From: Escherichia coli
GTDB taxonomy: Bacteria > Pseudomonadota > Gammaproteobacteria > Enterobacterales > Enterobacteriaceae
Assembly: GCF_044647545.1 (NCBI RefSeq)
Contig: NZ_CP172818.1
Length of the DNA: 64,000 nt
Direction: 5' to 3' (one strand)
Shown here: one piece after another, positions 4,040 to 28,838 of the stretch
Position numbering within the stretch: the first letter of the stretch is position 1
Layout: each line of letters begins with the position of its first letter
The notes under the pieces: generated by a model
What the model was told of the DNA's origin: nothing
What the model saw: the letters and a program-made list of their open reading frames with translations, nothing else
Databases searched by the model: none
Position numbers and translations under genes: made by a program

Positions 4040-4702
4040 TTATTGAATGCTGATTCGTAACGCTGCCGCCGTCGCAAAAGGACTTAAAGTCGCGGTGCCT
4101 GCCAGCAACGCGCCTAAAATTGCCAGATACCCATCAACGGGCAAATGCATAGAAGCCGCGTCCATCGCGGCGGTGGCAAAGATGAGTAATGGGATAGTCA
4201 GCGGTAACACCAATATGCTGAGCAGCACACCACCGCGCTTAAGTCCCACTGTCAGCGCCACGCCCGGTGCACCGAGAAAGCCAAGCGTAGGGGTTCCCAG
4301 CAGCAGCGTCAGCGCCATCACTTGCCAGCCATAAACATCCATTCCCAGTAGCATTGCTACCAGGGGCGAAAGGATGAGTAACGGCAGACCGGTTACCATC
4401 CAGTGCGCCATCACCTTCGCCAGCACAACGGCGGGCAAGGGTAACGGCAACAACATCAATTGTTCAAGACTGCCGTCCTGCAAATCGTCACGGAACAATC
4501 GTTCCAGCGCCAGCAAGGATGAAAGCAGCGCAGCAACCCAGATAATGCCCGGTGCAATACGCGCCAGCAGTTGCGGCTCCGGACCGATACTGAGCGGAAA
4601 AAGGGTAATGACAATCAGGAAGAACCACAGCGGGTTGGCGATTTCGGCGCTATGGCGAAACGCTACGCGCAGCTCAAGACGGAAAATGCGCCAGAACATC
4701 AT
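4040..4702 (-). CDS. ccmB: Heme exporter permease CcmB
   Basis: 220-aa membrane ORF; overlaps ccmA stop. Confidence 0.95.
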
Positions 4703-5322
4703 GCGGCCCCCGTTTGCGTCAGTGAAATGCGGCGAATTTTACTTTCAGCAACGTTGAGCGGCTGGTGGGTAGTCAGAATCACAGTCCCCCCCTGCTCCGT
4801 ATGCTGCGCCATACGCTTGGTCAGACGATCGACGCCGTTAACGTCAATCGCGGTAAAAGGCTCGTCGAGTATCCATAACGTGGCACGGGTCAGCCACAGA
4901 CGCGCTAAAGCGACGCGGCGTTGTTGCCCGGCAGAAAGTTGATTTACCGGAATATCTTCGAATCCGGCAAGCCCAGCCTGCGCCAGGGCTTCCAGACATT
5001 GTGCGGTATCGCCATCGCGATGATAAAAGTGCAGATTTTCTAACGCCGTCAGCCGGGTTTTGATCCCCGGCTGATGGCCTATCCATAACAGGTTTTGATG
5101 GTAGCTGTCGCGTACCTGATGCAAGGGCTGCCCTTGCCAGAGAACGTCACCCGCATCAGGGCGAGACAACCCCGTCAGCAAACGGAGAAGCGTTGTCTTC
5201 CCCGCGCCGTTGCTACCGGTGATTTGTACCCACTCTCCTGCGTTCAGCGTAAATGACAAGCCACTAAATAAGGTTCGTTCATCCCGCTCGCAAAGTAACT
5301 CTCTGGCTTCAAGCATACCCAC
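4699..5322 (-). CDS. ccmA: Heme exporter ATP-binding protein CcmA (ABC ATPase, Walker A GSNGAGKT)
   Basis: 207-aa ORF with Walker A and LSAGQ signature; apparent GTG start. Confidence 0.93.
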
Positions 5323-5334
5323 GCAATAACCCTG

Positions 5335-5937
5335 TTAAAAACCTGGCTCGACTTCGCGCATATCGGGCAGCTTGTGCGCTATCCCTTTATGGCAATCAAT
5401 ACAGGTTTGCCCATCTTTCACCGCCTGGTCATGCATCTTCGCGGCAACTGATTTCTGGGCGGTTGTATCCATATACTCGAAGTTGTGACAGTTACGGCAC
5501 TCCTGCGAGTTATTGTCCTTCATGCGCCGCCACTCATTCTGTGCCATCGTCAGGCGATGAGCTTCAAATTTCTGCGGCGTGTCAATAACGCCAAAAATTT
5601 TACCATACAGCTCTTTACTTGCTTTGAGCTTGCGTATCATCTTCGGCACAAACTCGTGCGGAACGTGACAATCCGGACAGGTCGCACGAACGCCGCTACG
5701 GTTGTTGTAGTGCACGGAATCCATGTATTCCTGATACACCGTGTTACGCATTTCGTGGCAGCTAATGCAGAACTCTTCGGTATTGGCTTTTTCCATCCCG
5801 GTGTTAAAGCCGCCCCAGAAGACGATACCGCCGACAAAACCGATCAACAGCAGCGTCCCCAGCGCCAGACGGCTGGGGGTACGCCACCATTTCCACAGGC
5901 GCTTAATCAGACCAGGCTTACGGTCAGAATTTCCCAT
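5335..5937 (-). CDS. napC: Membrane-anchored tetraheme cytochrome c NapC
   Basis: 200-aa ORF with four CxxCH motifs. Confidence 0.95.
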   Translation of the reverse strand: MGNSDRKPGLIKRLWKWWRTPSRLALGTLLLIGFVGGIVFWGGFNTGMEKANTEEFCISCHEMRNTVYQEYMDSVHYNNRSGVRATCPDCHVPHEFVPKMIRKLKASKELYGKIFGVIDTPQKFEAHRLTMAQNEWRRMKDNNSQECRNCHNFEYMDTTAQKSVAAKMHDQAVKDGQTCIDCHKGIAHKLPDMREVEPGF

Positions 5938-10431: not shown

Positions 10432-10691
10432 GGTGTTTCCTCACCTTGCTCTTCCTGCTGGTGATAAACCAGCGACACCGCCAGCACGCCCTCTACGTTG
10501 CGTACTGACTCAATGGTTTGAATCAGCGTTTCGCTGTCTTCTGCTTCCACCACCACAATCAACTGACCGCTCGGCGCGTCGCTGACAGCAACTTCACAGC
10601 CGGGAAAGGCGTTCAGTTGGGTGCTGATGTCTGAAATTCGTTCGCTTTTGGCCTGCACGACCAGACTGCAAACTTGCCAGTTAGTGTGCAT
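10428..10691 (-). CDS. napD: NapA chaperone NapD
   Basis: 87-aa ORF overlapping napA start and napF stop. Confidence 0.93.
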
Positions 10692-11175
10692 GGAGATACT
10701 CCGCAGTTATGGCTGATACCGGACAGCTGGCTGCACATGCTCCACATCCGTTGCAAAGTTGGCTATTAAGTTGCGGCTGGTAGATCCCGGAGAGCGTCGG
10801 GCGAAAGATAATTGCCATTGGCTCACAGCTATCCTGACAGCGGCGGCATTCAACTGACTGATACGCCAGGCACGCGTCCCCAATGGTGAACTGCAAATCC
10901 CAGGCCCTGGTGTGGCGCGGAGAAAATAGCGATTCGGGGCAAGCCTGCGCGCAGGCGTAACAGAAGCTGCACTCGTTATTTTTGAAATTAACGCTCGGAT
11001 AGCCACCCGCGCCGCGTTGCAGAATGTTGTTTTCACAAGCATTAATACAGGCGTCGCAGCGGGTGCAATGGGTCAGAAAATGAGATTCATCACCGGACCA
11101 GGGCGGACGGATACCGTTACTGGCTTTGCGCCAGCGACCAGTGAGTATGCCCCGACGGGATGCATCAATCTTCAC
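10681..11175 (-). CDS. napF: Ferredoxin-type protein NapF
   Basis: 164-aa ORF with several 4Fe-4S Cys motifs; GTG start. Confidence 0.93.
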   Translation of the reverse strand: MKIDASRRGILTGRWRKASNGIRPPWSGDESHFLTHCTRCDACINACENNILQRGAGGYPSVNFKNNECSFCYACAQACPESLFSPRHTRAWDLQFTIGDACLAYQSVECRRCQDSCEPMAIIFRPTLSGIYQPQLNSQLCNGCGACAASCPVSAITAEYLHAH

Positions 11176-11288
11176 ATTGACCTTCCATCATTAACGCGCT
11201 CTGAAAATTGAGAGCGACCAAATAAACCGCATAATTAATAAGCCATTTTTATAGCCGCTAAGATATTAAAGGATGTGTCAAAGATGCA

Positions 11289-12071: not shown

Positions 12072-12079
12072 ACTACTGG

Positions 12080-12195
12080 AGGATAAGGCGGTTACGCTGC
12101 ATCCGACATCTAACGCCCGAGCCGGTTGCCTGATGCGACGCTGACGCGTCTTATTAGCATACGCCACATCCGGCAAACCATGCCGGATGTGGCAC
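12080..12195. repeat. REP/BIME-like palindromic repeats plus hairpin between convergent eco and mqo
   Basis: GCCTGATGCGACGCTGACGCGTCTTAT-type REP motifs and inverted repeat GCCACATCCGGCA...TGCCGGATGTGGC. Confidence 0.7.
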
Positions 12196-12199
12196 ATCA

Positions 12200-20015: not shown

Positions 20016-20166
20016 AGGGAACTTTTTAAGATTATTGCGGAATGGCGAAATAAGCACCTAACATCAAGCAATAATAATTCAAGGTTAAAATCAATAACTT
20101 ATTCTTAAGTATTTGACAGCACTGAATGTCAAAACAAAACCTTCACTCGCAACTAGAATATCTCCC

Positions 20167-20259
20167 GCTATCATCATTAACTTTATTTATTACCGTCATT
20201 CATTTCTGAATGTCTGTTTACCCCTATTTCAACCGGATGCCTCGCATCCGGTTTTTTTT
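20167..20259 (+). ncRNA. micF: MicF small regulatory RNA (antisense regulator of ompF)
   Basis: GCTATCATCATTAACTTTATTTATTACCGTCATTCATTTCTGAATGTCTG... ending in terminator hairpin CCGGATGCCTCGCATCCGG plus T8; divergent from ompC. Confidence 0.9.
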
Positions 20260-20570: not shown

Positions 20571-23243
20571 ATGCGTCAGAAAGAGACAACGGCCACGACC
20601 CGCTTTTCACTCCTACCGGGGAGCATTACCCGCTTCTTTTTACTGTTGATCATTGTGTTACTGGTGACGATGGGGGTAATGGTACAAAGTGCCGTTAACG
20701 CCTGGCTGAAAGATAAAAGTTACCAGATTGTCGACATTACCCACGCAATCCAAAAGCGCGTCGATACCTGGCGTTACGTGACCTGGCAGATCTACGACAA
20801 CATTGCCGCGACGACCTCCCCCTCCTCCGGCGAAGGTTTACAAGAGACGCGCCTGAAACAGGATGTCTACTATCTGGAGAAACCACGCCGCAAAACGGAA
20901 GCGTTAATCTTTGGCTCTCACGACAACTCAACGCTTGAGATGACTCAACGGATGTCCACCTATCTGGACACATTGTGGGGCGCAGAAAATGTACCGTGGT
21001 CGATGTATTACCTGAATGGTCAGGATAACAGTCTGGTGCTGATCTCAACCCTGCCCCTCAAAGATCTCACCTCCGGATTTAAAGAATCGACCGTCAGCGA
21101 CATTGTTGATTCACGTCGTGCAGAGATGTTGCAACAGGCCAACGCCCTCGATGAACGCGAAAGCTTTTCTAACATGCGCCGCCTGGCCTGGCAGAACGGT
21201 CATTACTTTACCTTGCGTACCACGTTCAACCAGCCGGGACATCTGGCAACGGTCGTGGCTTTTGATCTGCCGATTAATGATTTGATCCCACCGGGCATGC
21301 CGCTGGACAGTTTCCGCCTTGAGCCAGACGCGACGGCAACGGGAGACAATGATAATGAGAAAGAAGGGACGGATAGCGTCAGTATCCACTTTAACAGTAC
21401 GAAGATTGAAATCTCCTCGGCACTCAACTCTACCGATATGCGCCTGGTCTGGCAGGTTCCTTATGGCACCTTATTGCTGGATACGTTGCAAAACATTCTG
21501 CTGCCACTGCTGCTGAACATCGGTTTGCTGGCGCTGGCGTTATTTGGCTATACCACATTCCGCCATTTCTCCAGCCGCAGTACAGAAAGCGTCCCCAGCA
21601 CGGCGGTCAATAACGAATTGCGCATTTTACGGGCAATTAATGAAGAGATAGTCTCACTGCTGCCGCTCGGCCTGCTGGTTCACGATCAGGAATCGAACCG
21701 CACAGTCATAAGTAACAAAATTGCCGATCATTTGCTGCCGCATTTGAATCTGCAAAACATCACCACCATGGCGGAACAGCATCAGGGGATTATTCAGGCG
21801 ACGATCAATAACGAGCTGTATGAGATCCGCATGTTCCGCAGCCAGGTTGCGCCGCGCACACAAATTTTCATTATTCGCGATCAGGATCGCGAAGTGCTGG
21901 TAAACAAGAAACTCAAGCAGGCGCAGCGTCTGTATGAAAAAAACCAGCAGGGGCGGATGACCTTTATGAAAAACATTGGCGATGCGCTGAAAGAACCCGC
22001 ACAGTCCCTGGCGGAGAGCGCGGCTAAACTCAACGCCCCGGAAGGCAAACAACTGGCGAATCAGGCAGATGTGCTGGTGCGGCTGGTCGATGAAATACAG
22101 TTAGCGAACATGCTTGCGGACGATAGCTGGAAAAGTGAGACGGTGCTGTTCTCCGTGCAGGATTTAATTGATGAAGTTGTGCCTTCAGTGTTGCCTGCCA
22201 TCAAGCGTAAAGGTCTGCAACTGCTGATTAACAATCATCTGAAAGCACACGATATGCGCCGCGGCGATCGCGATGCCTTACGACGTATTTTGCTGCTACT
22301 GATGCAATATGCCGTGACCTCAACGCAATTGGGAAAAATCACCCTTGAGGTTGATCAGGATGAGTCCTCCGAAGACCGCCTGACGTTCCGCATTCTGGAC
22401 ACCGGAGAAGGCGTAAGCATTCATGAAATGGATAATTTGCACTTCCCGTTTATCAACCAGACCCAAAACGATCGCTATGGCAAGGCGGACCCGCTGGCAT
22501 TCTGGCTGAGCGATCAACTGGCGCGTAAACTGGGCGGTCATTTAAACATCAAAACGCGGGATGGGCTTGGTACACGCTACTCTGTGCATATCAAAATGCT
22601 CGCAGCTGACCCGAAAGTTGAAGAGGAAGAAGAGCGATTACTGGATGATGTCTGCGTAATGGTGGATGTTACTTCGGCAGAAATTCGGAATATTGTCACT
22701 CGCCAGTTAGAAAATTGGGGTGCAACCTGTATCACACCCGATGAAAGATTAATTAGTCAAGATTATGATATCTTTTTAACGGATAATCCGTCTAATCTTA
22801 CTGCCTCTGGCTTGCTTTTAAGCGATGATGAGTCTGGCGTACGGGAAATTGGGCCTGGTCAATTGTGCGTCAACTTCAATATGAGCAACGCTATGCAGGA
22901 AGCGGTCTTACAATTAATTGAAGTGCAACTGGCGCAGGAAGAGGTGACAGAATCGCCTCTGGGCGGAGATGAAAATGCGCAACTCCATGCCAGCGGCTAT
23001 TATGCGCTCTTTGTAGACACAGTACCGGATGATGTTAAGAGGCTGTATACTGAAGCAGCAACCAGTGACTTTGCTGCGTTAGCCCAAACGGCTCATCGTC
23101 TTAAAGGCGTATTTGCCATGCTAAATCTGGTACCCGGCAAGCAGTTATGTGAAACGCTGGAACATCTGATTCGTGAGAAGGATGTTCCAGGAATAGAAAA
23201 ATACATCAGCGACATTGACAGTTATGTCAAGAGCTTGCTGTAG
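20571..23243 (+). CDS. rcsD: Rcs phosphorelay phosphotransfer protein RcsD
   Basis: 890-aa ORF with N-terminal TM region and C-terminal HPt domain; precedes rcsB. Confidence 0.95.
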   Translation: MRQKETTATTRFSLLPGSITRFFLLLIIVLLVTMGVMVQSAVNAWLKDKSYQIVDITHAIQKRVDTWRYVTWQIYDNIAATTSPSSGEGLQETRLKQDVYYLEKPRRKTEALIFGSHDNSTLEMTQRMSTYLDTLWGAENVPWSMYYLNGQDNSLVLISTLPLKDLTSGFKESTVSDIVDSRRAEMLQQANALDERESFSNMRRLAWQNGHYFTLRTTFNQPGHLATVVAFDLPINDLIPPGMPLDSFRLEPDATATGDNDNEKEGTDSVSIHFNSTKIEISSALNSTDMRLVWQVPYGTLLLDTLQNILLPLLLNIGLLALALFGYTTFRHFSSRSTESVPSTAVNNELRILRAINEEIVSLLPLGLLVHDQESNRTVISNKIADHLLPHLNLQNITTMAEQHQGIIQATINNELYEIRMFRSQVAPRTQIFIIRDQDREVLVNKKLKQAQRLYEKNQQGRMTFMKNIGDALKEPAQSLAESAAKLNAPEGKQLANQADVLVRLVDEIQLANMLADDSWKSETVLFSVQDLIDEVVPSVLPAIKRKGLQLLINNHLKAHDMRRGDRDALRRILLLLMQYAVTSTQLGKITLEVDQDESSEDRLTFRILDTGEGVSIHEMDNLHFPFINQTQNDRYGKADPLAFWLSDQLARKLGGHLNIKTRDGLGTRYSVHIKMLAADPKVEEEEERLLDDVCVMVDVTSAEIRNIVTRQLENWGATCITPDERLISQDYDIFLTDNPSNLTASGLLLSDDESGVREIGPGQLCVNFNMSNAMQEAVLQLIEVQLAQEEVTESPLGGDENAQLHASGYYALFVDTVPDDVKRLYTEAATSDFAALAQTAHRLKGVFAMLNLVPGKQLCETLEHLIREKDVPGIEKYISDIDSYVKSLL

Positions 23244-23259
23244 CAAGGTAGCCTATTAC

Positions 23260-23910
23260 ATGAACAATATGAACGTAATTATTGCCGATGACCATCCGAT
23301 AGTCTTGTTCGGTATTCGCAAATCACTTGAGCAAATTGAGTGGGTGAATGTTGTCGGCGAATTTGAAGACTCTACAGCACTGATCAACAACCTGCCGAAA
23401 CTGGATGCGCATGTGTTGATTACCGATCTCTCCATGCCTGGCGATAAGTACGGCGATGGCATTACCTTAATCAAGTACATCAAGCGCCATTTCCCAAGCC
23501 TGTCGATCATTGTTCTGACTATGAACAACAACCCGGCGATTCTTAGTGCGGTATTGGATCTGGATATCGAGGGGATCGTGCTGAAACAAGGTGCACCGAC
23601 CGATCTGCCGAAAGCTCTCGCCGCGCTGCAGAAAGGGAAGAAATTTACCCCGGAAAGCGTTTCTCGCCTGTTGGAAAAAATCAGTGCTGGTGGTTACGGT
23701 GACAAGCGTCTCTCGCCAAAAGAGAGTGAAGTTCTGCGCCTGTTTGCGGAAGGCTTCCTGGTGACCGAGATCGCTAAAAAGCTGAACCGCAGTATTAAAA
23801 CCATCAGTAGCCAGAAGAAATCTGCGATGATGAAGCTGGGTGTCGAGAACGATATCGCCCTGCTGAATTATCTCTCTTCAGTGACGTTAAGTCCGGCAGA
23901 TAAAGACTAA
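23260..23910 (+). CDS. rcsB: Response regulator RcsB (LuxR-type)
   Basis: ORF track starts at 23215 inside rcsD; conserved start MNNMNVIIADDHP at 23260 (216 aa). Confidence 0.95.
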   Translation: MNNMNVIIADDHPIVLFGIRKSLEQIEWVNVVGEFEDSTALINNLPKLDAHVLITDLSMPGDKYGDGITLIKYIKRHFPSLSIIVLTMNNNPAILSAVLDLDIEGIVLKQGAPTDLPKALAALQKGKKFTPESVSRLLEKISAGGYGDKRLSPKESEVLRLFAEGFLVTEIAKKLNRSIKTISSQKKSAMMKLGVENDIALLNYLSSVTLSPADKD

Positions 23911-23914
23911 TCAC

Positions 23915-23995
23915 CTGTAGGCCAGATAAGACGCGTTAGTGTCTTATCTGGCATTTGCACTGAATGCCAGATGCGGTGTAAACGCCTTATCCGTC
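23915..23995. repeat. REP-like palindromic elements between convergent rcsB and rcsC
   Basis: GTAGGCCAGATAAGACGCG / GTCTTATCTGGC / GCCTTATCCG motifs. Confidence 0.65.
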
Positions 23996-26845
23996 CTACG
24001 AATCCCGCGATTTCCTGACCCTCTCGGCATATACCGTTAGCGTCTGTTTTATCACATCCAGCGTTACCGGCTTCGACAGGCAGCTGTCCATACCGGACTC
24101 CAGACACCGCTGCTTCTCTTCAGCCAACGCATTAGCAGTTACTCCGATTACCGGCAACGTCAGTCCCAACTGACGAATGCGTTGCGTCAAGCGGTAACCA
24201 TCCATATTTGGCATGTTGACGTCGCTAAGCACGATATCAATATGATTCTTGCTAAGTACATTAAGCGCATCGACGCCATCATTCGCGGTTTTACATTGAT
24301 AACCCAACGATCCCAACTGATCTGCCAGAAGACGCCGGTTAATCGGATGATCATCCACGACCAGAATCATCATATCATCGTTATCGCTGACCGCTTTGTC
24401 CGTCGACGGCAGAGCGTTAGCAGGATCGTCGCTCTCCATCTCGATCAAATAAATACGCGCCAACAATGCCGGTAGCTCATGCGGGGCAGCCACACTGTGT
24501 ACCCACTCCCCTGGCGCTTTCTCCAGCGGAATACCAATATGGCGACGACAGAAGGTCACTACCGCTCTACCCTGCCATTTTTTACTCACTACCTCGTCAG
24601 TAATTAACACATCTTCGGGAGTCGGTTCCTGCCCTTCGTATGTTGTAACGACGATGCCGCTGCGCTGCAAACTGGTTTCCAGGAACTGACAGAGCGACGC
24701 ATTGCGGACCGCCAGCCAGCAGCGTTTACCACTCAACCCTTCCACGCCTTTTTTCTGCGGGTACTGAGCGCCGTACAACGGAATACGCACGGTAAACTGG
24801 CTGCCCATTCCCGGTTCTGAATCTACCGAGATGTCGCCGTCCATCATGCTGATCAGTTTTTCACAAATCGCCAGACCCAGACCGGTCCCCTGGAAGTTTC
24901 GCTGTACGCCCGTTCCGACCTGGAAGAAGGGATCAAACAAGCGCACGACTTCTTTCGCCGGAATCCCCACGCCGGTATCGCGAACACGGATAGAGAGATA
25001 ATCGCCATCAGCGCGAACTTGCAAAACTATACAGCCGGTATCGGTGAATTTTATGGCGTTACTCAACAGGTTGGAGATGACCTGCTGTAAACGCATCGGG
25101 TCGCCATTTAAGGCCACTGGCACATCCGGTTCAATAAAGCAGTACAAGCCTAACTGCTTGCGTACCACCAGCGGTAAATAGTTGGCGGTGATGTGGTTCA
25201 TCACTTCACGCGGTGAAAACTCACGCGGTTCGATCTTCAACTGTTCTGATTCAATTTTCGAGAAATCGAGAATATCGCTGATAATTTTCAACAACAGGCT
25301 GGAAGAGTTGTTCATTGCCGTCACCAGACGATCGACGCCTTTCGGTAACTCTTTGGTTTGCAACAGATCCAGGTTACCGATAATGCCATACAGCGGCGTT
25401 CGCAGCTCATGACTGACGGTGGCAAGGAACATCGATTTTGACTGGCTCGCCTGTTCCGCTGCTTGTGCCATCTCCTGCAACGACTCTTCCATCTTCACGC
25501 GCGAAGAAACATCCACCAGCACACAAATGGCCACGTTTTCATTACGATAGCGCGAATGGACGAAGCTGATTTGCAGATTGGTATTGTTGCTGGTCAGGAC
25601 ATCAACAAAATTGACCTGCTGCCCACAGATAATTTGTGTCAGCCGTTGGCGATCCTCATGCGTAAGCATATTGAGATAGGTATGCGCCAGTTCGTTACTT
25701 AAAATATTGACGCCATCAGCGGTACGCAAAATGCAGATACCCACTGGCGCGGAGGCGACAATCTTGCGATTAAACTGCTCATGTTCTTCCAGTCGCAGGG
25801 CGTCGCTTTCCGCCGGAATGAAAATACGTCGCTCGTACATCCGCGCGAGAGTAAACAATGCAGCTCCGGCAAGCACATTCAGCAAAATTGCGTTAAGGAT
25901 CAACATGCGAATGCGTTCCAGTACCTTATCAACCGGCACCGAATACACGATGCTTAGCGATGAGGGTGGCAGATTTTTCTTCAGCACCAGCTCCCGGAAC
26001 CCTTCCGTATAGCCAAACCAGGAGCGTTCCTGCATCCAGCGAGGATCGCCCTTAATTTTGCTTTCTGGTCCGGTAAGCGAAATCAGGGTATGACCATTTT
26101 CATCAAGAATGGTAACCCCCATCGGCAACGTACCAGGCAAGAAAAAGTTCTCCATCCGGATGGTCTGCTCGACACCCAAAAGCGCCTGCAACCGGTTCGC
26201 CAGATAAACTGGCGTCAAGGCGTAAAAATACCCGACGCCAGGGCGCGGACCTTCGCTGATCCAGTAGAGGTTACTGCCGCTATCATCTTGTGGTGCATTT
26301 CGATATTTATTGATGCGTTCATGCAACGCTTTCAACGCGGTATCGCGTTCCACTGGCATATCACGCAGACCGAAATTGGCCATGCAGAGGTTATCGCTGC
26401 CGATTAAAAATACCCGGTTGAGATCGTAAGCCGCAGAAAAATTATCGCGCCAGTAGCGCATAAACCACGCCAATGACTCCAGAGAACCTCGCCAGGTGTT
26501 ACTCATTGCGGAACAATCGGAGTCGGCAAACAGCGGTTCAAACGCAGGCACATCCGCCTGCGTTTCTCGTCCACGCGGGGAAAGCACACCGTTTTCTGCC
26601 GATAAGCGATTTTCAGCTATGTACTTCAGCTCTTTCATCACATCAGAGGTGCGTTGAATAAAGCGCTGAGCCTGATCAGAACTCAGATTAAATTCCTGAC
26701 GAATTTCCGATTCTCGCTGATGCAACGCATTAACGATGTAAAAAACGGATGAAAAAGCAATCAACAGCCAGAGCACTAACGCCAATGCTCTGAACATGTA
26801 GCGCGAGGCTTTCAGGGTTGTACGAAAAGAAGCAAGGTATTTCAA
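23996..26845 (-). CDS. rcsC: Hybrid sensor histidine kinase RcsC
   Basis: 949-aa ORF with HisKA/HATPase and C-terminal receiver domain; apparent TTG start. Confidence 0.93.
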   Translation of the reverse strand: MKYLASFRTTLKASRYMFRALALVLWLLIAFSSVFYIVNALHQRESEIRQEFNLSSDQAQRFIQRTSDVMKELKYIAENRLSAENGVLSPRGRETQADVPAFEPLFADSDCSAMSNTWRGSLESLAWFMRYWRDNFSAAYDLNRVFLIGSDNLCMANFGLRDMPVERDTALKALHERINKYRNAPQDDSGSNLYWISEGPRPGVGYFYALTPVYLANRLQALLGVEQTIRMENFFLPGTLPMGVTILDENGHTLISLTGPESKIKGDPRWMQERSWFGYTEGFRELVLKKNLPPSSLSIVYSVPVDKVLERIRMLILNAILLNVLAGAALFTLARMYERRIFIPAESDALRLEEHEQFNRKIVASAPVGICILRTADGVNILSNELAHTYLNMLTHEDRQRLTQIICGQQVNFVDVLTSNNTNLQISFVHSRYRNENVAICVLVDVSSRVKMEESLQEMAQAAEQASQSKSMFLATVSHELRTPLYGIIGNLDLLQTKELPKGVDRLVTAMNNSSSLLLKIISDILDFSKIESEQLKIEPREFSPREVMNHITANYLPLVVRKQLGLYCFIEPDVPVALNGDPMRLQQVISNLLSNAIKFTDTGCIVLQVRADGDYLSIRVRDTGVGIPAKEVVRLFDPFFQVGTGVQRNFQGTGLGLAICEKLISMMDGDISVDSEPGMGSQFTVRIPLYGAQYPQKKGVEGLSGKRCWLAVRNASLCQFLETSLQRSGIVVTTYEGQEPTPEDVLITDEVVSKKWQGRAVVTFCRRHIGIPLEKAPGEWVHSVAAPHELPALLARIYLIEMESDDPANALPSTDKAVSDNDDMMILVVDDHPINRRLLADQLGSLGYQCKTANDGVDALNVLSKNHIDIVLSDVNMPNMDGYRLTQRIRQLGLTLPVIGVTANALAEEKQRCLESGMDSCLSKPVTLDVIKQTLTVYAERVRKSRDS

Positions 26846-27011
26846 AGGGGCGAAGCTCCGCCTCAGGTGACCGATGGAGTGTGGTTAAGGTAGCGGTAAA
26901 AGCGTGTTACCGCAATGTTCTCTCTTCTCTGGAATATGATACACCGCCGAGAAATCATCACCTTAACCTCTGATAATCGTCATATACCGGACAAGACTAG
27001 TGGATTTCAGC

Positions 27012-28838
27012 ATGCATTATATGAAGTGGATTTATCCACGCCGCTTACGCAATCAAATGATCCTGATGGCAATCCTGATGGTCATTGTCCCAACGCTTAC
27101 TATTGGTTATATCGTAGAAACGGAAGGGCGTTCAGCAGTCTTATCTGAAAAAGAGAAAAAACTATCTGCCGTGGTCAACCTGCTTAATCAGGCGCTAGGC
27201 GATCGCTATGATCTCTACATCGACTTACCACGTGAGGAGCGTATCCGCGCATTAAATGCAGAACTTGCCCCCATTACCGAAAATATCACTCACGCCTTCC
27301 CTGGCATCGGCGCTGGTTATTACAACAAAACGCTGGATGCGATAATCACCTACGCGCCTTCAGCGCTATATCAGAATAATGTCGGCGTTACCATTGCCGC
27401 AGATCACCCTGGTCGCGAAGTCATGCGTACAAATACCCCTTTGGTTTATTCAGGCAGGCAGGTGCGCGGCGATATTTTGAATTCAATGATCCCCATTGAG
27501 CGTAATGGTGAAATCCTCGGCTATATCTGGGCCAATGAATTAACCGAAGATATTCGCCGCCAGGCCTGGAAAATGGATGTGAGGATTATCATTGTGCTTA
27601 CCGCCGGTTTGCTGATAAGCCTGCTGTTGATTGTCCTTTTCTCCCGTCGCCTGAGCGCCAATATTGATATCATCACCGATGGCCTCTCGACTCTGGCACA
27701 AAATATTCCCACTCGATTACCACAATTGCCCGGTGAAATGGGGCAAATCAGTCAGAGTGTTAACAACCTCGCCCAGGCACTGCGTGAAACGCGAACACTT
27801 AACGATCTGATTATTGAAAACGCTGCCGATGGCGTCATTGCCATTGACCGCCAGGGTGATGTAACCACCATGAACCCAGCAGCAGAAGTTATTACTGGCT
27901 ATCAACGCCATGAACTGGTAGGGCAGCCTTACTCCATGTTGTTCGACAATACTCAGTTCTACAGTCCAGTACTGGATACGCTGGAACATGGCACCGAACA
28001 TGTAGCGCTGGAGATCAGTTTTCCAGGCCGTGACCGCACCATTGAACTCAGTGTCACTACCAGTCGTATTCATAACACGCACGGTGAAATGATAGGTGCT
28101 TTGGTGATTTTCTCTGATTTAACTGCCCGCAAAGAAACCCAGCGCCGCATGGCGCAAGCAGAACGCCTCGCCACACTGGGTGAGCTGATGGCTGGCGTCG
28201 CGCATGAAGTACGTAATCCGCTAACGGCTATTCGTGGTTATGTACAGATCTTGCGCCAACAAACCAGCGACCTAATACATCAGGAATATCTGTCCGTAGT
28301 ACTCAAAGAAATCGATTCAATTAACAAAGTTATTCAGCAATTGCTCGAATTTTCACGCCCACGCCACAGTCAATGGCAACAAGTCAGCCTCAATGCATTG
28401 GTTGAAGAAACTCTGGTACTGGTACAAACCGCTGGCGTACAAGCGCGGGTCGACTTCATAAGCGAACTGGATAATGAATTAAGCCCGATTAACGCCGATC
28501 GTGAACTGCTCAAACAGGTACTACTGAATATCCTGATCAATGCCGTCCAGGCTATCAGTGCACGAGGGAAAATTCGCATTCGAACCTGGCAATACAGCGA
28601 CTCACAACAGGCCATTTCGATAGAGGACAACGGCTGTGGCATTGATCTCTCGCTGCAAAAAAAGATCTTCGATCCCTTTTTCACCACCAAAGCCTCAGGA
28701 ACCGGGCTTGGTCTGGCGTTAAGTCAACGCATCATTAATGCCCATCAGGGTGATATTCGCGTCGCCAGTTTGCCGGGCTACGGCGCAACCTTCACGCTTA
28801 TTTTACCGATCAACCCGCAGGGAAATCAGACTGTATGA
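27012..28838 (+). CDS. atoS: Sensor histidine kinase AtoS
   Basis: ORF track starts at 27000; conserved start MHYMKW at 27012; PAS and HisKA/HATPase domains. Confidence 0.93.
   Translation: MHYMKWIYPRRLRNQMILMAILMVIVPTLTIGYIVETEGRSAVLSEKEKKLSAVVNLLNQALGDRYDLYIDLPREERIRALNAELAPITENITHAFPGIGAGYYNKTLDAIITYAPSALYQNNVGVTIAADHPGREVMRTNTPLVYSGRQVRGDILNSMIPIERNGEILGYIWANELTEDIRRQAWKMDVRIIIVLTAGLLISLLLIVLFSRRLSANIDIITDGLSTLAQNIPTRLPQLPGEMGQISQSVNNLAQALRETRTLNDLIIENAADGVIAIDRQGDVTTMNPAAEVITGYQRHELVGQPYSMLFDNTQFYSPVLDTLEHGTEHVALEISFPGRDRTIELSVTTSRIHNTHGEMIGALVIFSDLTARKETQRRMAQAERLATLGELMAGVAHEVRNPLTAIRGYVQILRQQTSDLIHQEYLSVVLKEIDSINKVIQQLLEFSRPRHSQWQQVSLNALVEETLVLVQTAGVQARVDFISELDNELSPINADRELLKQVLLNILINAVQAISARGKIRIRTWQYSDSQQAISIEDNGCGIDLSLQKKIFDPFFTTKASGTGLGLALSQRIINAHQGDIRVASLPGYGATFTLILPINPQGNQTV

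Follow-up and report, generated by a model that had tools for sequence, protein, structure and literature searches.

Four genes within a 64,000-nucleotide stretch of DNA from Escherichia coli (hereafter the window) appear to begin at codons other than ATG: rcsC at TTG, and napF, ccmA and yfaQ at GTG. This raises the questions of whether these codons are the true initiation sites, whether their number in one region is unusual, and whether a weak start could be a means of keeping expression low.

Non-ATG start codons in the window

The window is a segment of the E. coli chromosome with the gene order ccm-nap ... rcsDB/rcsC-ato-yfa-gyrA ... glp. All four codons, first proposed in a sequence-only reading, were found on the minus strand at the positions given in Table 1. 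Each was the first ATG, GTG or TTG past the upstream in-frame stop and hence the longest-frame start, and the RefSeq (PGAP) starts are the same four codons. That reading also described the starts as consistent with conserved N-termini, which was borne out for three of them; the exception is ccmA, whose conserved N-terminus starts at an ATG 6 nt downstream.

Table 1. Positions of the coding sequences, start codons and Shine-Dalgarno (SD) elements considered in the window
Feature	Position	Strand	Remarks
rcsC CDS	23996..26845	-	949 codons; sensor kinase of the Rcs phosphorelay; ORF list, PGAP, translation
rcsC TTG start	26843..26845	-	decoded as fMet, then invariant AAA; conservation, TetRP, N-terminal peptide, Ribo-RET
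rcsC codon 17 ATG	26795..26797	-	former annotated start, not the initiation site; comparison, SD, TetRP
rcsC SD-like GAGGCGGAG	26856..26864	-	10-11 nt upstream of TTG; within partly conserved leader motif GGCGGAGCTTCGCC
ccmA CDS as annotated	4699..5322	-	207 codons from GTG
ccmA annotated GTG start	5320..5322	-	doubtful or secondary; 12 nt past in-frame napC TAA stop (5335-5337)
ccmA ATG, codon 3 of annotation	5314..5316	-	candidate start, immediately followed by LEAR; conserved in all homologs examined
napF CDS	10681..11175	-	164 codons
napF GTG start	11173..11175	-	4 codons past tandem stops; 5 residues before conserved SRR(G/S)xLTG motif
napF SD GGAAGG	11181..11186	-	5 nt before GTG; -6.7 kcal/mol
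yfaQ CDS	35117..36766	-	549 codons; secreted DUF2300 protein
yfaQ GTG start	36764..36766	-	abuts yfaS TAA stop (36767-36769), junction TAAGTG
yfaQ SD AGGTGA	36772..36777	-	inside yfaS end; 5 nt before GTG; -6.8 kcal/mol

The listing of four such genes within 32 kb could be taken as a meaningful local cluster reflecting translation control across the region. However, the 49 annotated CDS in the window start with ATG in 44 cases, GTG in four and TTG in one, the fourth GTG belonging to the yfaS pseudogene. The usage of ATG, GTG and TTG in E. coli is 83, 14 and 3% (Hecht et al., bioRxiv 10.1101/063800), so the five non-ATG starts (10%) compare with a genome-wide frequency of about 17%, or about eight expected (P(<=5) = 0.14, P(>=5) = 0.94). 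Non-ATG starts are not enriched in the window, their count being no higher than expected by chance. The four genes also sit in four unrelated transcription units. Local enrichment was therefore rejected on the CDS count, and region-wide control has next to no probability.

The non-ATG starts in the window are thus an ordinary feature that is already annotated. It is very probable that all four are ordinary near-cognate codons with nothing specific to the region, the starts of rcsC, napF and yfaQ being genuine and ccmA starting at the ATG at +6 or at both codons. GUG and UUG would be decoded by fMet-tRNA once the SD sequence has positioned the 30S subunit, and their initiation strength is 10-100% of that of AUG (Hecht et al., bioRxiv 10.1101/063800). 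For annotation, the longest-frame rule is unreliable in this window, as atoS and rcsB would be misplaced by it too.

Published initiation data cover the four genes unevenly. None of them was among the annotated INRI-seq sites in the portion of the table that was covered. The N-terminomics table (PMC13245402) did not contain napF, ccmA or yfaQ, which is unsurprising for genes that are expressed anaerobically or poorly, and no initiation-site or N-terminal data published for these three genes under expressing (anaerobic, nitrate) conditions were found. N-terminal proteomics and initiation-site profiling, which had been put forward as the way to check the starts, are already published for rcsC and both agree with TTG.

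The initiation site of rcsC

In K-12, tetracycline ribosome profiling (TetRP) placed a new rcsC start at -48, on TTG, with a signal of 117/39/44 versus 0/0/3 at the old ATG (PMC4909307 Table S2). The N-terminal peptide MKYLASFR corresponds to the TTG site, which is also supported by Ribo-RET (in BL21) and REPARATION (PMC13245402 Table S1). The 60-nt start context of K-12 rcsC (b2218, 949 aa, verified TTG) is identical to that of the window, so that the site carries no difference at all, and an exact 28-30-mer around the TTG was present in 5412 of 5426 complete E. coli genomes. RcsC is initiated at TTG, as proven by published experiment in K-12. This was already known, and what is new here is only the comparative survey.

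For this survey, 80 species genomes and the window were compared, giving 81 Enterobacteriaceae sequences. Codon 1 was TTG and codon 2 was AAA in every one of them, while TTG made up only 8% of the internal Leu codons of the same genes. From codon 3 to codon 16 the amino acid was kept and the third position was free, as many as 11 different codons occurring at one site. Coding-type evolution started at the TTG and not before it; the sequence upstream fell into unrelated families. Six distant orthologs (29-48% identity) began with TTG-AAA, TTG-AAA, GTG-AAG, GTG-AGA, TTG-AGA and TTG-AAA. The start among the 87 orthologs was therefore TTG in 85, GTG in two and ATG in none, although these orthologs share descent, and fewer independent events underlie them than the count suggests.

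Before 2014, rcsC was annotated from the ATG at codon 17, giving 933 residues, with the TTG then being an in-frame Leu codon or part of an untranslated leader. ATG is the commonest start codon, it directly precedes the first transmembrane segment here, and it occurs in Escherichia and in a small number of further genera. However, this amounts to only 8 of 81 sequences; the other 73 species have CTG, CTT, TTA, CTC, CTA or TTT at that codon. Evolution across codons 2-16 is that of coding sequence, and the ATG lacks an SD (-0.1 kcal/mol); the near-zero TetRP signal at the ATG, together with the recovered peptide, refutes initiation there. We therefore regard a start at codon 17 as practically excluded and the TTG annotation of rcsC as trustworthy. 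It had been cautioned that such assignments could reflect annotation tradition; for rcsC the history ran the other way, with an old ATG annotation replaced by TTG in agreement with profiling, and the caution holds for ccmA only, where GTG is the longest-frame choice.

The rcsC leader

The duplex of GAGGCGGAG with the 3' tail of 16S rRNA was calculated at -7.5 kcal/mol. GGCGGAG was found before rcsC in 58 of 79 species, and the other 21 had a weak or different upstream sequence (-1.5 to -3.7 kcal/mol). The leader sequence GGCG-GAGCTT-CGCC is also able to pair with itself. A structured GGCG/CGCC hairpin was considered and set aside: pairs are lost in the variants of Kosakonia type (CCCC) and Klebsiella type (GGCC) with no compensating change, and an Rfam search with the leader gave no match. 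A leader bound by CsrA has been proposed for Salmonella rcsC by authors who also note that CsrA binding maps had not recovered rcsC (PMC7241856). We treat the GGCG/CGCC element as conservation of the SD, and it may possibly be a CsrA site, as others have proposed.

No promoter was detected between rcsC and atoS when this intergenic region was scanned with the sigma-70 consensus. The species comparison also showed a conserved block, TTGCG(A/G)...TACCTTAAC, upstream of rcsC.

Is the weak start of rcsC selected?

The idea that weak start codons set a low basal level of translation had been raised for both RcsC and the nap operon. Evolutionary support for it is found for rcsC only; it does not extend to napF, which has ATG in the Salmonella-like and other enterobacterial nap operons. 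Across the Enterobacterales examined, TTG or GTG has been kept at rcsC while the SD was not always kept. A near-cognate codon that persists while the SD comes and goes would suggest that the sub-optimal start is selected to hold the level of the RcsC kinase/phosphatase low. In the Rcs phosphorelay RcsC has kinase as well as phosphatase activity, and changes in RcsC of 1.3-1.9-fold accompany altered RcsB output in Salmonella (PMC7241856). Since output shifts along with such modest changes in amount, a weak start built into the gene would offer a simple way of setting dosage. The weak start could then fix RcsC at a low level relative to RcsD and RcsB, or couple RcsC to initiation-factor status.

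The opposing explanation is that slow start-codon turnover has left the non-ATG codons, the rcsC TTG among them, in place as neutral remnants with no role in expression. The napF and yfaQ starts do switch between GTG and ATG among relatives, and the rcsC sequences are phylogenetically non-independent, both of which favour neutrality. However, synonymous sites are saturated in the same 81 rcsC sequences, with all four bases found at four-fold sites, and the first positions of Leu codons in rcsC switch between C and T repeatedly while the first base of the start codon never changes. In the distant orthologs this base changes to G only, never to A. Genome-wide, start-codon evolution favours UUG/GUG to AUG (Belinky et al.), and it is because the general trend runs towards AUG that the long-held UUG of rcsC is notable. 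On this balance, neutrality for all four codons seems rather unlikely. That rcsC kept a sub-optimal start since the common ancestor of the sampled Enterobacterales lineages, with a weak, IF3-discriminated start as the selected feature itself, is a tentative proposal from the comparison, to which we give a little less than an even chance. The invariant T could also be held by some other constraint, such as a site across CCCU-UUG-AAA to which an RNA or protein binds. The strict retention of TTG/GTG on rcsC is the sole item of some biological interest among the four starts.

Sub-optimal start codons are known in other regulatory genes. The infC gene has an AUU start and is autoregulated through IF3, and the UUG start of cya limits the synthesis of adenylate cyclase. 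By analogy, rcsC may share with them a sub-optimal start in a regulatory gene that is harmful when overproduced, with IF3-dependent discrimination against non-AUG codons; for rcsC, in contrast, the link of the TTG to dosage or to IF3 is drawn from conservation. A role of IF3 in the choice of start codon has been mentioned (Hecht et al., bioRxiv 10.1101/063800). Of 688 annotated starts verified by N-terminomics, 60 were GTG or TTG (PMC13245402). The verified TTG of rpsT and GTG of cra (PMC13245402), and the TTG of uvrY/sirA in Salmonella, resemble the rcsC start in their near-cognate codon, upstream SD-like motif and iMet N-terminus. The rpsT gene encodes a highly expressed ribosomal protein, which shows that a TTG start alone does not mean low abundance.

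The GTG starts of napF and yfaQ

NapF contains no Met codon anywhere downstream of the GTG, and napF starts at GTG because the frame offers no other start upstream of the conserved N-terminal motif. An exact 28-30-mer at the napF start was found in 5414 of 5426 E. coli genomes, and GGAAGG was kept in the Salmonella-like and other enterobacterial contigs. The start codon itself was not conserved among orthologs. The Escherichia-type sequence is GTG-AAR-ATT-GAT, while Salmonella and the other contigs have ATC/GTC-ATG-GTT-GAT, so that the Salmonella-like contigs and L088-L094 use an ATG one codon downstream and carry ATC or GTC at the position of the GTG. The napF GTG is real, being forced by the frame, but Escherichia-specific; NapF would accordingly begin MKIDASR. 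Between lineages the start has shifted by a single codon (GTG-AAG-ATT versus GTC-ATG-GTT), which suggests that the weak codon is a lineage accident and not a conserved design. No napF footprint was found in the published initiation-site data covered, the only signals nearby being out of frame and in vitro. An upstream ORF over the napF start (out-of-frame ATGATG...) was considered and is not regarded as functional, since its signals were seen in vitro only and it is lost in two Salmonella-like contigs.

For yfaQ, no start other than the GTG keeps the signal peptide intact; the frame is closed by a stop directly before it, an SD is present and the position is conserved. A signal-peptide-like N-terminus was present in 19 of the 22 homolog N-termini listed, the other three being shorter calls that lack it; in YfaQ, cleavage is predicted after TLA. 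The position of the start was kept in five lineages, as GTG in E. coli and L105 and as ATG in L103, L104 and L106, and GGTGAAATAA at the SD was conserved in L103 and L105. The yfaQ GTG is thus real, but its codon identity is not conserved among relatives, with GTG and ATG alternating.

At yfaQ, the GTG comes immediately after the TAA of yfaS and the SD sits inside that upstream gene, and the ccmA start lies 12-18 nt past the napC stop; both junctions resemble the stop-start coupling known from operons. This architecture is kept in relatives at yfaS-yfaQ and at napC-ccmA and would be consistent with coupling here. Ribosomes terminating at the yfaS stop would probably re-initiate at the yfaQ GTG. 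As yfaS in the window is a pseudogene with an internal stop, ribosomes may not reach this junction.

The ccmA start: GTG, ATG or both

The homolog search for CcmA returned almost only near-identical E. coli entries and therefore little diversity. Two Salmonella entries carry internal duplications and one of these is a second, non-nap ccm copy; the start region is usable in both. The arrangement GTG-GGN-ATG is common to Escherichia and the Salmonella nap-linked copy only, and neither the GTG nor the residues that it adds are conserved among orthologs. In contigs L088-L092, from a related enterobacterial lineage, the sequence is TAA-CCA-GGT-ATG. The TGC-GTG of E. coli is replaced there by an in-frame stop and CCA, which leaves the ATG as the sole possible start of ccmA in these contigs. 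The second Salmonella copy has ATG-ACA-ATG-ATG in place of GTG-GGN-ATG, and both this copy and a distant homolog (L100) lack the GTG and keep ATG-CTT/CTC-GAA.

Translation of ccmA from the annotated GTG only, with the ATG two codons later as an ordinary internal Met, is what the PGAP and K-12 annotations imply. The spacing of a weak SD-like AGGG also favours the GTG (7 nt, compared with 13 nt to the ATG), and GTG-GGN is kept in E. coli and the Salmonella nap-linked copy. As GTG-GGN-ATG has been kept between these genera though the flanking spacer diverged, the GTG is arguably not meaningless. One TetRP sample also has signal at the GTG only. However, the in-frame stop in L088-L092 and the homologs that lack the GTG stand against this, as do the many gene calls of 205 aa (databases being divided between 207 aa and 205 aa) and the Gly/Ser polymorphism at codon 2 within E. 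coli. TetRP lists ccmA as "ATG +6, multiple" (PMC4909307), with 75/14/0 at the ATG versus 0/14/17 at the GTG, that is 75 versus 0 in one sample; these counts are low and the 6-nt spacing is near the limit of resolution. We consider exclusive use of the GTG improbable.

Probably, the GTG was annotated as the start of the longest frame, with the conserved ATG following downstream. Initiation would then occur at the ATG, and the GTG may serve too, giving dual starts and proteins of 207 and 205 residues, or be an artefact of the longest-frame rule. Genes with dual starts are known, and ccmA is one of 22 with TetRP signal at the annotated and the new site alike (PMC4909307). Among 101 downstream alternative starts in N-terminomics, 52 give proteoforms fewer than 15 residues shorter, and 37 of those differ by no more than five (PMC13245402). 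Like the dual-start genes of both data sets, ccmA has signal at two close in-frame starts, at low read counts. An annotation of ccmA should give the ATG at +6 as its start or mark the gene as having dual starts.

Retention of a weak start codon at rcsC

A TTG or GTG start codon was strictly retained at rcsC in 87/87 orthologs examined, and this is the modestly new item of the analysis. The 5' regions of rcsC from 80 species-representative Enterobacteriaceae genomes were combined with that of the window, and in all 81 sequences codon 1 was TTG and codon 2 was AAA. At codons 3-16 the amino acids were kept while the third positions were free, with as many as 11 codon types at one site. Codon 17, which is ATG in the window, was ATG in 8/81 and otherwise CTG, CTT, TTA, CTC, CTA or TTT; TTG made up 8% of the internal leucine codons of the same genes. 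Because TTG is invariant, codons 3-16 are of coding type and the codon-17 ATG is present in so few sequences, translation must begin at TTG; judged by this comparison, the codon-17 ATG cannot be the start for the family. A Shine-Dalgarno (SD)-like GAGGCGGAG lies 10-11 nt 5' of the TTG (-7.5 kcal/mol), and the complementarity check found no SD before the codon-17 ATG.

The TTG start has already been settled experimentally in K-12, whose rcsC start is identical to that of the window over a 60-nt context. Tetracycline ribosome profiling (TetRP) shifted it by -48 nt to TTG, where the signals were 117/39/44, compared with 0/0/3 at the former ATG (PMC4909307), and a 2026 N-terminomics study reported the peptide MKYLASFR from this site, together with Ribo-RET (BL21) and REPARATION support (PMC13245402). 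The check that the sequence-only reading had proposed, N-terminal proteomics or initiation-site profiling, was therefore already published and agrees with TTG. An exact 28-30-mer centred on this codon was found in 5,412/5,426 complete E. coli genomes.

Six distant RcsC orthologs, each adjoining rcsB, were obtained by a representative-protein search and then DNA look-ups, and shared 29-48% identity across the N-terminal 359 residues. They begin TTG-AAA, TTG-AAA, GTG-AAG, GTG-AGA, TTG-AGA and TTG-AAA, the gene caller having picked a later ATG in the last of these, which gives 85 TTG, 2 GTG and 0 ATG overall.

It had been proposed that weak start codons on rcsC and on the first nap gene may set low basal translation, and evolutionary support for this was obtained for rcsC only. 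As synonymous sites in the rcsC genes are saturated and genome-wide start-codon change favours the direction towards AUG (Belinky et al.), the persistence of TTG or GTG suggests that selection has favoured a sub-optimal codon. Such selection would fit the SD, which is not conserved, being -3.7 kcal/mol or weaker in 21/79 species, and the Salmonella dosage data, in which 1.3-1.9-fold RcsC changes go with changed RcsB activity (PMC7241856). A putative CsrA site has also been proposed in the Salmonella rcsC leader (PMC7241856).

A TTGCG(G/A)-N17-TACCTTAAC block, located ~40-75 nt 5' of the rcsC TTG and kept in most of the 80 species, could be an rcsC promoter or regulator site. Its Escherichia version carries a 7-bp inverted repeat (GCGGTAA/TTACCGC), which came up, on the opposite strand, in a terminator scan. 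For the small leader hairpin GGCG/CGCC, the species comparison gave no compensatory changes and Rfam gave no match. Rfam did identify the MicF sRNA 5' of ompC and a REP-derived naRNA4 element in the 85 nt that separate the convergent 3' ends of rcsB and rcsC.

Coordinates of the features discussed; each of the first four is the first ATG/GTG/TTG past the upstream in-frame stop and the PGAP start
Feature	Window position	Strand
rcsC start, TTG	26843-26845	-
napF start, GTG	11173-11175	-
ccmA start, GTG	5320-5322	-
yfaQ start, GTG	36764-36766	-
ccmA codon 2	5317-5319	-
napF upstream ORF	11165-11191	-
eco/mqo indel	about 12072-12199	
MicF	20166-20259	+
rcsB longest-frame TTG (23215) to annotated ATG (23260)	23215-23262	+
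naRNA4	23920-23996	-
Conserved block 5' of rcsC	26880-26925	-
atoS longest-frame GTG (27000) to annotated ATG (27012)	27000-27014	+
yfaS pseudogene	36767-41281	-
yfaS annotated start, GTG	41279-41281	-
inaA-glpQ interval	56368-56831	

Start codons of napF, yfaQ and ccmA

For napF, tandem stops lie four codons 5' of the GTG, Met codons are absent from the 61 codons translated after it and from the whole NapF protein, the conserved SRR(G/S)xLTG motif begins at residue 5-6, and GGAAGG is found 5 nt 5'. GTG is therefore the sole possible start, in agreement with the sequence-only assignment, and 5,414/5,426 E. coli genomes carry its exact context. Across enterobacteria, the start is displaced by one codon between lineages: GTG-AAG-ATT-GAT in E. 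coli corresponds to ATC-ATG-GTT-GAT in Salmonella and to GTC-ATG-GTT-GAT in a second group of metagenome contigs, GTG being confined to Escherichia-type sequences, while more distant homologs start with GTG or ATG. Since the GTG is not conserved beyond Escherichia, low basal translation through a weak first nap codon is not a conserved design.

An upstream ORF of 8 codons, ATGATGGAAGGTCAATGTGAAGATTGA, extends over the napF SD and GTG in a different reading frame. INRI-seq recorded initiation at two ATGs, the first of this ORF (-16) and another at +10; both signals were seen in vitro only, and in-vivo Ribo-RET signal was absent. One Salmonella contig and the enterobacterial contigs L088-L094 have the ORF's ATG, which two Salmonella-like contigs have lost.

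The yfaQ GTG, likewise correctly assigned, abuts the yfaS stop (TAAGTG), with AGGTGA 5 nt 5', and opens a typical signal peptide, MNWRR-IVWLLALVTLPTLA-EE. Of the 22 YfaQ homolog N-termini listed, 19, ranging from Enterobacteriaceae to Pseudomonas, have a similar signal-peptide-like sequence, which the three shorter gene calls lack. In four relatives the start lies directly or 1-2 nt past the stop of the yfaS homolog; one of them, an enterobacterial MAG, has GTG there, and the other three (Superficieibacter, Entomohabitans and Pseudomonas) have ATG. The start is real and conserved in position, with a codon identity that drifts, and the architecture suggests yfaS-yfaQ translational coupling. In the matching RefSeq genome an internal stop makes yfaS (alpha-2-macroglobulin family) a pseudogene, and no SD complementarity was found at its annotated GTG (-2.3 kcal/mol). 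If yfaS translation ends early, yfaQ would no longer be coupled to it in the window strain.

The caveat that the assignments could reflect annotation tradition was apt for ccmA. Here the napC stop TAA is followed by 12 nt and GTG-GGT-ATG-CTT-GAA; the nap-linked Salmonella copy reads TGA-GTG-GGA-ATG-CTT, the second Salmonella ccm copy ATG-ACA-ATG-ATG-CTT and a distant homolog CCC-CTG-ATG-CTC. Four contigs of another enterobacterial lineage (L088-L090, L092) read TAA-CCA-GGT-ATG-CTT, with an in-frame stop two codons 5' of the ATG and no GTG. In this alignment the sole start that is conserved is the ATG before LEAR. In the TetRP data, where ccmA is entered as "ATG +6, multiple", the signals were 75/14/0 at ATG and 0/14/17 at GTG (PMC4909307), and public gene calls are divided, some giving 207 residues and others 205. 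The annotated GTG may reflect the choice of the longest frame, and is at best a second start.

Codon 2 of ccmA varies between Gly and Ser in E. coli: the window and K-12 have GGT, MNCRE44 and R14 (loci L113 and L114) have AGT. The exact 30-mer around the start is present in 4,889/5,426 genomes, compared with 5,412 for rcsC and 5,414 for napF. In two Salmonella CcmA entries, P0001 and P0002 (loci L085 and L084; 306 and 309 aa), ~100 residues are internally duplicated in tandem; these duplications could be assembly errors or real. The second Salmonella ccm operon lies 3' of a tor-like cluster, its ccmA overlapping the preceding gene (ATGA).

Start-codon usage and genome differences

The window runs ccmH-A, napCBHGADF, eco, mqo, yojI, alkB, ada, apbE, ompC, rcsD, rcsB, rcsC, then atoSCDAEB, yfaPQ-S-T-A, gyrA, ubiG, yfaL, nrdAB and on to glpQT/glpA. 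All four non-ATG codons were located on the minus strand where they had been placed. The 49 annotated CDS mapped, with NZ_CP033850 as RefSeq annotation source, start with ATG (44), GTG (4, the fourth being the yfaS pseudogene) or TTG (1). As E. coli gene starts are ~83% ATG, 14% GTG and 3% TTG (Hecht et al., bioRxiv 10.1101/063800), ~8 non-ATG starts would be expected, and the 5/49 in the window are no excess (P(at least 5) = 0.94, P(at most 5) = 0.14). In E. coli, GUG and UUG initiate at 10-100% of the AUG level (Hecht et al., bioRxiv 10.1101/063800), and GTG/TTG accounted for 60/688 verified annotated sites by N-terminomics (PMC13245402). Such codons are common, verified starts in E. coli; those in the window are ordinary and were already annotated. 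In atoS and rcsB the longest frame opens 5' of the annotated ATG, so a longest-frame rule would add two spurious non-ATG starts.

Several complete genomes match the rcsC region at 100% identity, and at >=95% identity it matched 5,423 records (5,422/5,426 complete genomes). In O157:H7 genomes yfaQ lies only ~2.7 kb from rcsC, and the ato operon is therefore absent there. Compared with the otherwise matching NZ_CP033850, the window is without ~2.3 kb (MFS transporter and LysR regulator) between inaA and glpQ, and the two also differ between eco and mqo by an indel of 21 nt.
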